Below are positions 7,148-11,515 of a stretch of 19,918 nucleotides of DNA, in pieces. Numbering within the stretch: position 1 is the first letter of the stretch; every line of letters begins with the position of its first letter. The notes under the pieces were generated by a model. It worked only from the letters and a program-made list of their open reading frames with translations, was not told the DNA's origin and did no database searches. Position numbers and translations under genes: made by a program. The stretch covers positions 1-19,918 of the forward strand of contig CAWDLW010000037.1 in the NCBI GenBank assembly GCA_963803145.1. Direction: 5' to 3'. Source of the stretch: Methanotrichaceae archaeon (GTDB lineage: Archaea > Halobacteriota > Methanosarcinia > Methanotrichales > Methanotrichaceae).

Positions 7148-7388
7148 AGTATTAAGAGGATCTAGTCGAAATCCTCTCCGCCGGGCATTCCGCCGCCTGG
7201 TGCGGACTTTGAGGCTATGACGTCATCGATCCGCAGAATCATGACTGCAGCTTCGGCCGCAGAGTTGATCGCCTGAGTCTTTACCCTCAAAGGCTCGACA
7301 ACTCCCAGATTCAGCATATCAACGGGCTTACCTGTATCTATATCGAGGCCAGTGCTCTTCATTCCCTTTTCGTGAGCGCTTCTGAGAG
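7148..7388 (-). repeat. Orphan copy of thermosome gene 3' end plus terminator (att-like direct repeat of 9855..10128)
   Basis: 7201-7388 aligns ungapped to 9941-10128 with 21 mismatches in 188 nt by manual count. It encodes LRSAHEKG...GGEDFD. The stop and downstream sequence are also homologous. No 5' part of the gene is present. Confidence 0.95.
7162..7387 (-). pseudogene. Thermosome subunit C-terminal fragment
   Basis: Matches the C-terminus of 9869..11515 except for one A->T change and a shorter GGMP tail. Homology stops abruptly at 7388. Confidence 0.9.
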
Positions 7389-8097
7389 GTGTAGTATTCG
7401 TGCAAATCACGAATTGGGCAGTCGGAGCCTCATGGGCGGAGAAAAAATTCCGATGATAGCAGATACTTTTGCTGAAAATAGGGTTTCTCTTATAGCTATG
7501 AAAGAAGTATCTTTAGGTATATATGCTCTGACATCATCGCAGAGCCTATGCCTAGAGGGCAAAAGCGATACGTAAAAGTCGATGGCGAAGTAATCTTTGT
7601 GGATGAATCAGGGACTTCTGGTTTGTCCCCCGTATCTATCGCATCTAGCCCTTATTACACTATTGGATACGTGTACTGCCACGAACCGGCTCAGCTTCGA
7701 ACAGATTTGAAAAGATTATTGAGAAGGGAGCATAGGAGCGGTAGATACCCATCTCTGCTCAATGAGTTGAAATTTTACCTTCCCAGAACCGATCTGATAA
7801 AAAAAGGGTATACTCCTGAGCAATTAAACCAGTATGAGGAATATCTTCCAGATATAAGGAAGAAGGCAATCCAAATAATATGCGAAGATGCAGCAGGTAT
7901 CTTTGCGGCCATCCTTGATAAGGAAAGTGTAGCTCAGCCTACCTGGACTAATGAGCGGATTGGGAATTATATCTTTGCCAAGACCTTGTTCCTCGATGTG
8001 ATGAATAATATTTCTCCACGTTATCCTCCAGTTATTCTGTATGATAAAGGTCGGCTATCTCCGACAAAGAACAGCCAATTCAAGGAGTATGTAATTA

Positions 8098-9180
8098 TAG
8101 TCATTCTCCCAACTTTTTACCTTATAAACTGCTTTATCCAAGACTTAGAGTATCCATCTTTATTGGAATAAAATATTTGTAAAGCGCAATCTTGGGCATC
8201 CTCAATAGCTTCATCAAAATCAGTATATTTTGATATCTCTCTTTTAAAATCCTTCCAACCGAACTCTATAGGATTTAAATCAGGGGAATATGGCACGTTA
8301 TATATTAAATGGATATCAAGTTCGTGGGCTAATGCCCTAAACTTCTTAGCTAGATGTATTCTAGCATTATCTAGGACAATACATATTGGTCTCATAATAT
8401 TGTTACTTCTCAATTTTTGGGCGAAGATCATTAAATCTTCTTTCTTGGATGAGTGAGAGACCATAACTTCATCATTTCCATTCAATGCAATGAACCCAAA
8501 AACAGTTCTAGACCTAACTTTTCCAGGTTGATAATTTAGCATATGGGTGTTTAAAACCCTGCGTGTATTAGGTCGCTGTTGCAAAGAGCTTTCATCAAGG
8601 AATCCAATAATAGGTTCTTTGACTGTTGTTATTACTGAATCTATCCTTTTTTTAGAAAACTTTCTGCATTAACAGGCCTCTTATTATTTCTAATATATGG
8701 TTTACCATATTTGACTTTCTTTATTGATCTTAAAATCTTCCAACCACCTTTATACGAATATTCTACGCCTCTTGTGTCTTTTGCATATTTTATTACCTCT
8801 TTTATAGTCATTCCTTTGTCCTCAATCTCTTCGATAATTTTATCCCATTCATCAAAAGATATCATTGGTTCTTTGCCGTTTCTATTCTGTGGTATCAATC
8901 CATCATATCCTTGTTTGTTCCAATCGCTTAGCCAATTCTTTATTGTCTTTTCACTTCGTTTAAGAATATCAGCTACTATATATACATTCTTTCCTTCGTA
9001 TAAATGTATTATCGCTAGTAGCCGTTCTTTAATTCTTATGTTTCTCTCATCTTTATACAATTGATCTAATTCTACCTTCGAGATATGTCTTACAATTACA
9101 GGTTTCCTGCCCATGAACGGCTATATCGTATATTAATTATTTAAGGGTATCTATGAGGTAAAAATTACGTGGATTAACTA
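8098..9180 (-). mobile_element. IS630-family insertion sequence (1083 bp) with TA target duplication
   Basis: TA at 8096-8097 and 9181-9182. Imperfect terminal inverted repeats: TAGTCATTCTCCCAACTTTTTACCT versus the reverse complement of the right end, TAGTTAATCCACGTAATTTTTACCT. AT-rich relative to its flanks. Confidence 0.92.
8117..9114 (-). CDS. IS630-family transposase, two ORFs (HTH 8641..9114; DDE 8117..~8647) joined by a -1 frameshift
   Basis: ORF1 is HTH-like. An A7 run (T 8647-8653 on +, read CTA AAA AAA GGA TAG) shifts -1 into RIDSVITTVKEPIIGFLDESSLQ..., giving the DDE motifs FLDES, VLDNARIH and PYSPDLNPIE. Confidence 0.9.
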
Positions 9181-9417
9181 TAATAAGGATCGTTACTTTG
9201 AGAAGATGGATCTGAAATCGTATAAGGGCCAAATCCCCACACCGCAAGAGCAGAGTTCCTATGCGGAACCAGGTATATGGGCCGCTGATCTTGTAGCGGG
9301 ATCTTTTGAATGTAAATATAAACACAATGAGCCCACCTGCGCGGATTTGCTCAGTGTAAGATATATAAAGGCCGGAGAAAGATCATACTGGCCGGAAGAA
9401 ACGCAAGAAAAGTGATA

Positions 9418-9505
9418 TGGACAGACCCTTGGTATTCCCAATCGGGCACGAACCCCTCTCACCTATCGGCGATAGGCACGGTTTCCCAAGGTCTTACCTA
9501 TCCGA
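9418..9505 (-). ncRNA. Candidate DUF3800-associated structured RNA
   Basis: Outer stem AGACC(C)TTGG 9423-9432 / CCAAGGTCT 9486-9494 encloses two hairpins (CCC-aatc-GGG; CCTATC-ggc-GATAGG), each followed by CACG. It starts a few nt after the DUF3800 stop. A minus-strand BRE/TATA lies about 25 nt beyond it. Strand is inferred from that promoter. Confidence 0.55.
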
Positions 9506-9527
9506 TCATTATTGTGCATCTGCTACT

Positions 9528-9540
9528 CTATATATTTTCC
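9528..9540 (-). promoter_or_regulatory. Putative BRE+TATA promoter facing the DUF3800 gene 3' end
   Basis: Minus strand reads GGAAAATATATAG. The predicted start near 9503-9505 coincides with the edge of the structured element, and no credible ORF follows. Confidence 0.45.
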
Positions 9541-9585
9541 GGTGATTTTTGGTGTTTTCCGAATTATTAAGCATTATGAATTCGT

Positions 9586-9840
9586 CCCACATTCCGCACT
9601 TTAACTCTAACCCGTAATAATTTCACATTCTCGACCAAATAGCTTGAGAACTGTGATTTGTGGCTCGCTTAGATGTGCAACAACTTTAACGATTTTTCCG
9701 CCATCCACGACAACCGATTGAATCACACCCATAAAGAACTCGAAGATCCAACGCATAGTAGGGCGCTGTGTAGGCGTGTTGAGTTGATTGGGCACAGTAA
9801 GTCCAGTCTCTTTGAGCGTTTCTCTAAGCTGCCACTCTGC
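9586..9840 (-). mobile_element. IS1634-family remnant: transposase C-terminus and one end
   Basis: Frame from 9840 reads AEWQLRETLKETGLTVPNQLNTPTQRPTMRWIFEFF, typical of IS1634 transposase C-termini. It ends in ...TGCGGAATGTGGG (CCCACATTCCGCA 9586-9598), recalled as an IS1634-like terminus. The 5' part is missing. Confidence 0.75.
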
Positions 9841-9884
9841 AAAACAAATAAAAAAGTATTAAGAGGATTTAATCGAAATCCTCT
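9841..9884 (-). terminator. Thermosome terminator: hairpin over the stop codon plus T-rich tract
   Basis: AGAGGATTT 9862-9870 / AAATCCTCT 9876-9884 is a perfect 9-bp inverted repeat, followed by T-runs on the minus strand (A-runs 9841-9855). Retained in the orphan copy (7155-7177). Confidence 0.6.
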
Positions 9885-11515
9885 CCGCCCATGCCACCGG
9901 GCATTCCGCCAGGCATGCCGCCTGGCATTCCGCCGCCTGGTGCAGACTTTGAGGCTATGACATCATCGATCCTCAGGATCATGACAGCCGCCTCGGCTGC
10001 AGAGTTGATCGCCTGAGTCTTCACCCTCAAAGGCTCGACAACTCCAAGGTTCAGCATATCCACAGGCTTGCCTGTATCGATATCGAGACCAGCGCTCTTC
10101 ATGCCCTTCTCGTGTGCACTTCTGAGAGCAACGAGAGTATCAATCTGATCAAGGCCAGCGTTCTCTGCTAGCGTCTTGGGGACGGCTTCCATTGCATCGG
10201 CAAATGCTTCGATCGCGAGCTGCTCACGGCCACCTACGGTCGCTGCATATTCCCTGAGCCTCAGAGCCAGCTCGACCTCAGGAGCGCCTCCGCCTGGAAC
10301 GAGCATCTTATCCTCAACTGCAACGCCCACAACTCGCAGTGCATCCTCCATCGCCCTGTTCAGCTCATCAACTACGTGCTCTGTGCCGCCTCTGAGGATT
10401 ATAGACACGGACTTGGGGTTCTCGCACTCCTCGACGAAGGTCATCTTCTCATCGCCGATCTTCCTCTCCTCGACTATGCAGGACTTACCGAGATCACTGG
10501 CCATCAGGTCGTGAATGCTTGTGACAATTCTTCCGCCTGTTGCACGGGCCAGCTTCTCCATATCGCTCTTCTTCACTCGGCGGACTGTATAAATTCCGGC
10601 CTTTGCGAGGAAATGCTGTGCCAGGTCATCGATGCCCTTCTGGCAGAAGACTACGTTTGCTCCTGTATCCTGGACGCGCTTGACCATATCCCTGAGCATG
10701 GTTTCCTCCTGGTCGAGGAATGCCTGGAGCTGATCAGGTGATGTGATCTCAATCTTAGCATCGACCTCGGTCTTCTCTATCTCGATGGGTGCATTGAGCA
10801 GCGCAATCTTCGCGTTCTCTACCTTCTTAGGCATATTTGGATGGAGCCTATCCTTATCTACGACAACGCCGCGGACAATCTGGGAATCAGTGATGCCTCC
10901 ACCGACCTTCTTCTCAACTGTAATGTTATCGATGTCCACGCTTCCGTCTTCATCGATAACGGATTTCACTGCCTGCACTGCTAGATATGCAAGATCGTCC
11001 CTGCCGACCCCAGAGCCCTTGCCTGTCATGGCAGTGATTGCTATCTTCTTCAGAAGCTCAGTATCGTCCGGTGAAACCTTTACGGCCACTGTCTTCAGAA
11101 TATCCATGGACTTATCTGCTGCAGCCCTGTAGCCTGCGGCTATAACTGTTGGATGAATCTCCTGATCAAGCAGTCCCTCTGCTTGCTTTAGGAGCTCTCC
11201 GGCCAGTACAACGGCTGTGGTGGTTCCATCTCCGACCTCGGCATCCTGAGTCTTGGCGATCTCAACCATCATCTTGGCAGCAGGATGCTCAATATCCATC
11301 TCCTTGAGAATTGTGACGCCATCATTCGTTATTACTACATCGCCGAGTGTATCGACAAGCATTTTATCCATGCCCTTCGGACCCAGAGTAGTCCTGACTG
11401 CACCTGCAACAGCCTTTGCAGCCATAATATTTGATCTCTGAGCCTCTCGGCCAGCAGTTCTCTGGCTACCTTCCTTAAGTATAAGTACGGGTGTTCCGCC
11501 TAATTGTCCTGCCAT
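9869..11515 (-). CDS. thsA: Thermosome subunit (group II chaperonin)
   Basis: [41 protein letters not shown] motifs and a GGM-repeat tail. AGGAGGT RBS at 11522-11528. The alpha/beta assignment is uncertain. Confidence 0.97.

Follow-up and report, generated by a model that had tools for sequence, protein, structure and literature searches.

The 3' end of the thermosome (group II chaperonin) gene occurs twice on contig CAWDLW010000037.1 of a Methanotrichaceae archaeon (assembly GCA_963803145.1), and we propose with moderate confidence that the second copy arrived with imported congeneric DNA, which recombined downstream of an unaltered thermosome gene and was then eroded by insertion sequences (IS). 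The window, i.e., the whole stretch of DNA that was analyzed, is the entire contig (C37; 19,918 bp); the assembly to which it belongs (G000 in the following) comprises 51 contigs and 4.13 Mb, with an estimated contamination of 6.8%. A first-pass annotation, made from the letters of the window, had reported the repeat in direct orientation and had explained it by an element family that uses the thermosome gene as bacterial-type attachment site (attB): the intact gene would end in element-supplied sequence and 7148-7388 would be its displaced native end. The repeat was borne out by our analysis; the roles assigned to its two copies were not. The features that constitute the repeat and its left flank are:

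9869-11515, minus strand: intact thermosome gene, a 548-aa open reading frame (ORF) with 639.8 bits to PF00118
9840-10128, minus strand: repeat copy B, consisting of the intact gene's last 85 codons, its stop codon and the terminator hairpin
7137-7388, minus strand: repeat copy A, a thermosome 3' fragment of 74 codons starting at the residues LRSAH, with a TAG stop and a terminator hairpin
6874-7136, no strand assigned: downstream flank in common with the related genome G002, where it follows the thermosome terminator directly

The intact gene carries a full-length Cpn60_TCP1 domain (PF00118 profile positions 2-489), whereas the match of the ORF of fragment A (7162-7410, minus strand) is limited to profile positions 428-489 of 490. 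Both copies have the same orientation, with A located 2.7 kb downstream of B. They align in two pieces, 7178-7388 with 9918-10128 (211 nt, 90% identity) and 7143-7182 with 9850-9889 (40 nt, 93%). A 33-nt indel in the Gly-Gly-Met (GGM) tail shifts these pieces against each other. The homology begins 2 nt ahead of the Leu codon of LRSAH (7388/10128) and stops shortly beyond the terminator (about 7137/9840). For 188 nt of this alignment 21 differences, 20 of them synonymous, had been stated in the first-pass annotation; our codon count over the first 210 nt gave 23 differences, 22 synonymous and one Ala/Thr exchange. Random changes in this segment would be synonymous in 24-28% of the cases, so that the probability of at least 22 synonymous changes among 23 is 1.5e-11 or lower. 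The thermosome repeat is thus confirmed as real and, because of this excess of synonymous changes, the two copies have diverged under purifying selection, as had been claimed.

An empty site in a related genome, which the first-pass annotation had named as a check, is directly visible in G002, a member of the same genus. There, the terminator of the orthologous thermosome gene runs straight into the flank that is found to the left of A in the window. Since G002 joins both directly, the DNA between the terminator of the intact gene and the left flank is extra relative to G002. The flank and its G002 counterpart are identical at 267/291 positions (91.8%, measured over 6874-7161). Its left 137 nt (6874-7010) are part of a dispersed repeat with further copies at G000:C18:31942 and C18:48019. 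Further to the left the three genus members differ entirely, and the genes which lie downstream in G002 are located on contig C38 of this assembly. The region downstream of the thermosome gene is a rearrangement-prone site, being packed with dispersed repeats.

Comparison with G002 also indicates which of the two copies is native. Over the 5' 1389 nt of the intact gene the identity to the G002 orthologue amounts to 92.7% (102 differences), and copy B differs from G002 at 13/192 positions, with 193/210 identical positions in a second count (91.9-93.2%). As B and the remaining 1389 nt of the gene match G002 equally well, B behaves as a native tail and not as the element-supplied sequence that had been supposed. 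Over a 38-nt terminator stretch (9840-9877) B and G002 are identical; A carries four substitutions and a 3-nt deletion here, as read from the printed sequences. When the 5' and the 3' portion were placed in separate trees, as recommended in the first-pass annotation, B grouped with G002 both times (support 97 in the 5' tree and 78/87 in the 3' tree).

Copy A shows 26/192 differences to G002 (86.5% identity), compared with an expected 7.3% (P=0.002) and with the lower number of B (Fisher P=0.04). It is a diverged copy, too distant from G002 for the displaced native end it had been taken for. A and B differ at 21/192 positions. According to our own reading of the codon comparison about 12 changes are private to A, 11 of which are synonymous (P about 2e-6 to 8e-6); since the excess changes are synonymous, they do not point to decay after displacement. 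Gene conversion from a thermosome paralogue on contig C11 was rejected as their source, because the private changes of A do not match this paralogue. A falls inside the genus-level orthologue clade with a support of 98/98, and its best DNA matches in the 105 genomes of the family are B (90%), G001 (89%) and G002 (87%). Judged from these sequence comparisons, B is probably the native tail of the gene and A an import.

The DNA that separates the terminator of B from fragment A comprises 2.45 kb. Its content can be read directly; in the order from A to B it consists of a stretch without relatives, a DUF3800 module split by an IS630-family element, and the remnant of an IS1634-family element:

7389-7510, no strand assigned: 122-nt stretch without relatives in 105 family genomes, between A and the DUF3800 module
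7511-8092, plus strand: first part of the DUF3800 module with promoter region and codons 1-181, assigned by locus homology and a PF12686 match just below the cut-off
8093-9184, minus strand: insertion sequence of the IS630 family, which interrupts the DUF3800 gene at a TA
9185-9580, plus strand: second part of the DUF3800 module with the last ~77 codons and a conserved downstream region
9586-9844, minus strand: probable IS1634-family remnant with one terminus and the last ~62-86 transposase codons, the remainder being missing
9840-9852, no strand assigned: joint of the IS1634 interior with the thermosome terminator at a CAAAA microhomology, located by alignment with three IS copies and the G002 terminator

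Next to the 7388/7389 joint a 6-bp hairpin was read by eye at about 7399-7415. The 159 nt from 7389 to 7547 have no real relatives in the 105 family genomes; three matches of 24-54 nt (E 0.002-0.007) were taken as chance. Homology to other DUF3800 loci starts only at 7511 and extends, in the case of the homologous locus L063, to 9580. The N-terminal DUF3800 part reaches 20.6 bits against PF12686 with a cut-off of 21, the intact 256-aa homologue of L063 reaches 30.2 bits, and with an uninterrupted homologue (L062) the protein identity amounts to 83%. Intact homologues have a length of 253-256 aa. A search of metagenome contigs with the DUF3800 protein yielded five loci, none of which contains thermosome sequence, and no confirmed relatives were obtained from genome contigs and viral contigs. 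Elsewhere DUF3800 homologues occur in unrelated contexts, e.g., the copy in G007 lies beside a HmaB-like methylase gene according to PADLOC, and in L063 a D5-like primase (DUF5906/Pox_D5), a zincin-like peptidase fragment and a PIN protein are encoded close to the homologue (6580-7380). The surroundings in L063 suggest that mobile elements carry DUF3800 along. Neither the DUF3800 proteins nor the two unassigned ORFs (229 and 340 aa) were recognized by PADLOC.

The IS630-family element has matching ends with TA on both sides. Its two ORFs carry helix-turn-helix (HTH) and DDE_3 domains and match NF033545 with 66.7 and 70.2 bits; as the gene is spread over two frames, neither value reaches the 100 bits set as cut-off for the whole protein. 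At least eight copies with 100% identity are present in this genome, located in the window, on C8 (two copies), C15, C16, C17, C18, and C38, which suggests recent transposition bursts. The IS1634 remnant aligns, at 70-77% identity, with the first ~260 nt of ~1.74-kb elements that occur in multiple copies in several genomes of the family. In G079 the protein encoded by a full copy has 542 aa (NF033559, 396 bits) and contains DUF4277 and DDE_Tnp_1 domains; the 62-aa ORF of the remnant itself matches no family. The surviving terminus (9586) faces the DUF3800 gene, and the truncated interior is fused to the terminator of B. At this point both sequences have the 5 nt CAAAA in common, in addition to imperfect matches over about 13 nt. 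The B-side joint thereby bears the marks of an illegitimate joint mediated by microhomology, not those of an attachment (att) site. The extent of the repeat on this side was hence set by a deletion, which may also have taken away part of what had been inserted.

These observations can be combined to the following history, in which the mechanism of the crossover, the source of the DNA and the sequence of the later events are inferred. The thermosome gene would have remained intact and kept its own 3' end, with about 2.7 kb of imported DNA (about 7137-9839) placed directly after its terminator. At its far end, the imported DNA would carry a thermosome 3' fragment and terminator that stem from a different lineage within the genus. 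In the incoming molecule, either circular or exchanged, fragment A may have been located beside the DUF3800 accessory gene. A single crossover of the Campbell type, homologous or site-specific, at the chromosomal thermosome tail or its downstream region would then have created the direct repeat around the insert. Later, a microhomology-mediated deletion may have truncated the IS1634 element, ending just past the selected terminator and possibly taking further element genes with it. The IS630 element, which seems to be active in this genome, would have split the DUF3800 gene thereafter. Fragment A would be a non-functional relic, the synonymous-only divergence of which dates from a working gene elsewhere. 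A single crossover in a homologous segment generally results in a direct repeat with one incoming and one host copy. The locus agrees with such a Campbell-type insertion in the direct repeat of a homologous segment around inserted DNA; it differs in that neither an incoming molecule nor its source or the point of crossover was observed here and in that the insert has since been eroded by IS activity.

Several points weigh against this history. The 3' comparison rests on only 192-210 nt (192 columns in the 3' tree), and the approximately unbiased (AU) test rejects neither A as sister of B (p 0.26) nor A as sister of B plus G002 (p 0.35), while A plus G002 is rejected only at the borderline (p 0.056). 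The polarity of the copies is for this reason likely, not proven. The identities of the flank (91.8%) and of A (86.5%) to G002 do not differ significantly (P=0.07), so that the flank may or may not have arrived together with A. Public contigs do not cover 8031-9845 and hence lend no independent support to the joint at about 9845; this gap in coverage speaks neither for nor against the joint. Neither a donor genome nor a circular form nor a recombinase was found, and the proposed history does not account for the position of the other joint at the LRSAH codon.

Among the alternatives, the most probable one regards A as the last remnant of a tandem full-length thermosome paralogue, which was functional until its 5' 85% were destroyed by insertions and deletions. 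We consider this unlikely. With four full-length thermosome paralogues in this genome the loss of one would be tolerable, A bears the signature of purifying selection and branches in the genus clade outside the pair of B and G002, and several IS scars are present at the locus. A tandem origin is nevertheless less parsimonious: the flank that adjoins A in the window is connected in G002 to a tail and terminator of the B type, so that a precise deletion would be needed there. Moreover, A does not resemble the other paralogue, showing 43/192 differences to the C11 copy. We also searched for the 74-residue tail in the 105 family genomes and inspected the best 150 of 370 matches; judged by their coordinates, close pairs on one contig were absent from these matches except in G000.

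The interpretation of the first-pass annotation, in which an integrase-bearing element entered the thermosome gene at LRSAH and supplied B, with A as the displaced native end and the integrase deleted later, seems improbable to us. It would account for a direct repeat of the gene's 3' end that bounds the insert, for the relative with an empty site and for the purifying selection on both copies. The truncated IS shows that the insert was partly deleted, and a mobile element would fit the DUF3800 homologue that has a D5-like primase in its vicinity on a metagenome contig. It is opposed by the agreement of B, including the identical 38-nt terminator, with the G002 gene, by the largely synonymous excess divergence of A, and by the microhomology at the joint on the B side. 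An integrase or other site-specific recombinase was not present among the 20 larger contig ORFs scanned against Pfam; one may have been lost through a deletion. Neither a tRNA gene nor an Rfam family was detected in the window.

A further occupied site was not encountered either. Among the inspected 150 best matches of the tail search, the only extra thermosome tail fragment was that of the window, and other islands bounded by fragments starting at the same LRSAH codon, for which the first-pass annotation had suggested to look, were not detected. Short frames in G081, G096, and G080 proved to be contig-end truncations. G103:C43 (L034) and G104:C1 (L036) are full-length thermosome orthologues with a single frame break each, the frame shifts probably being sequencing errors, and the genes in G075:C191 and G064:C63, which begin less than 800 nt from the contig start, were taken as cut genes by their coordinates alone. 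This check of short frames left out those of 345-486 aa (G096:C343, G112:C18, G065:C82, G109:C22, G086:C151, and G019:C66). In 30 IMG/VR contigs no tail fragments were found: all 30 carry full-length chaperonin genes, one of which is cut by the end of the available contig sequence. A large protein collection contained 206 thermosome-like proteins of 45-144 aa. None of the 28 short thermosome proteins inspected had a foreign leader joined at LRSAH; all of them start inside the thermosome, at varied positions. The junction pattern had no match in metagenome contigs, and literature searches revealed no report of a thermosome gene as integration target.

The e14/phage 21 integration in icd of Escherichia coli is a known case of a prophage-type integration with a replacement 3' end, and some Staphylococcus aureus pathogenicity islands (SaPI) at groEL are a precedent for integration at a chaperonin gene. 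The thermosome locus has in common with e14/icd that a direct repeat of a housekeeping gene's end bounds the insert, that the differences between the copies are mostly synonymous and that a relative with an empty site exists. In contrast to e14/icd, it lacks an integrase, one of its joints is a microhomology to a truncated IS, and no other occupied sites were found. Furthermore, the copy attached to the gene looks native here and the detached copy foreign, which is the reverse of e14. Three of the five defining features of the e14/icd type are thus missing at the thermosome locus, namely the recombinase, the copy polarity and other occupied sites or a free element, with the copy polarity judged by a weak test (192 nt, AU not decisive).

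Archaeal elements in protein-coding genes are known: according to PMC6563490, 14 of 68 thaumarchaeal elements are integrated in 3'-distal parts of protein-coding genes. The att sites of these elements are short, with a median of 17 bp, and their gene content includes integrases or casposases. The word chaperonin does not occur in the main text of that article, its supplementary target table aside. The thermosome locus resembles these elements in the archaeal host, in the 3' end of a protein-coding gene as the site and in its recognition via an empty site; it differs from them by a repeat of about 250-290 nt with 10% divergence and by the absence of any remaining recombinase. That integrative elements of a so far undescribed family use the thermosome 3' end or terminator as attachment site in these methanogen-like archaea, with this locus as a decayed member, strikes us as improbable. 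The same small probability applies to the corollary of this idea, namely that an element-carried arm of ~250 nt stays under purifying selection because of its use as the gene's tail after integration and that the LRSAH joint, which occurs in two independent metagenomes, is the true end of the element. Were the interpretation of the first-pass annotation right, archaea would have a new kind of attachment site in a group II chaperonin gene, with a replacement arm that is long and under selection.

A chimeric assembly, in which strains or species that occur together were joined into this metagenome-assembled genome, is very improbable. The 51 contigs, the contamination of 6.8% and a genome size of 4.1 Mb, compared with 3.0-3.3 Mb of the congeners, would allow for it, as would a contig spanning an IS with at least eight identical copies and the joint at about 9845, which is uncovered by public contigs. 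The 7388/7389 joint, however, is bridged by contigs from public runs of two different studies: the X1 contig covers 7272-7524 with one difference and the X4 contig covers 7339-7484 with eight differences and one gap. The joint is for this reason no assembly artifact; it is real and occurs in a somewhat diverged population too. Logan contigs cover only 6929-7961 of the window, in addition to scraps around 9899-9985; the latter pieces run into unlike sequence and are probably derived from other thermosome genes. The path through the IS630 copy is argued to be correct because the two DUF3800 halves flank it in frame, with TA on each side, and match the uninterrupted metagenome homologue. With an identity of only ~71% to the single further copy detected in this genome (G000:C15), the IS1634 remnant is in turn no repeat by which an assembler would be misled.

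A long target-site duplication by the IS1634-family element, for which that remnant within the insert and a repeat length inside the 8-514 bp reported for IS1549 and IS1634 (PMC2266710) could be put forward, is refuted in practice by geometry and divergence, since fresh copies would be identical and not 11% different at almost only synonymous positions, and since the IS terminus (9586) abuts neither copy, B being touched by the IS interior.

Further observations concern the surroundings of the thermosome gene and its relatives. The 30 viral contigs (L071-L100) carry group II chaperonin genes with 42-52% identity to this thermosome. On C18 of G000 (31796-32078; 48019-48116) two direct copies of ~657 nt, 92% alike and both with a DUF6788 gene, are separated by 16 kb. 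The DNA between them contains an AbiEii-like gene as well as fragments of a tyrosine integrase (193 aa) and of an IS1-like element, and the pair may bound another island. An element of ~225 nt with more than 15 copies in G000 at 84-94% identity was noticed in L031 (G002:C1; 12524-12755) downstream of the SAICAR synthase gene and looks like a miniature inverted-repeat transposable element. Within the window, a 340-aa ORF without family assignment (11963-12985, minus strand) is situated between the thermosome and the ABCE1 genes; this ORF (region 11976-13151) is absent from G002 and present in G001. The segment 4634-6697 encodes a 687-aa BNR/Ycf48-like repeat protein and contains internal DNA repeats spaced 120-246 nt; neither this gene nor the two phosphoesterase genes to its left are syntenic in two congeners.

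Purifying selection on both copies of a repeated gene end cannot by itself tell which copy is native, and it is the comparison with the sister genome that reverses the assignment made in the first-pass annotation. The locus can be filed as a recombination and insertion scar and looks like such a scar rather than a proven new integration system. For the biology of this archaeon, import of congeneric DNA downstream of the thermosome gene would mean that the locus represents an ordinary, neatly preserved scar of DNA exchange within the genus, reshaped by three kinds of mobile DNA.

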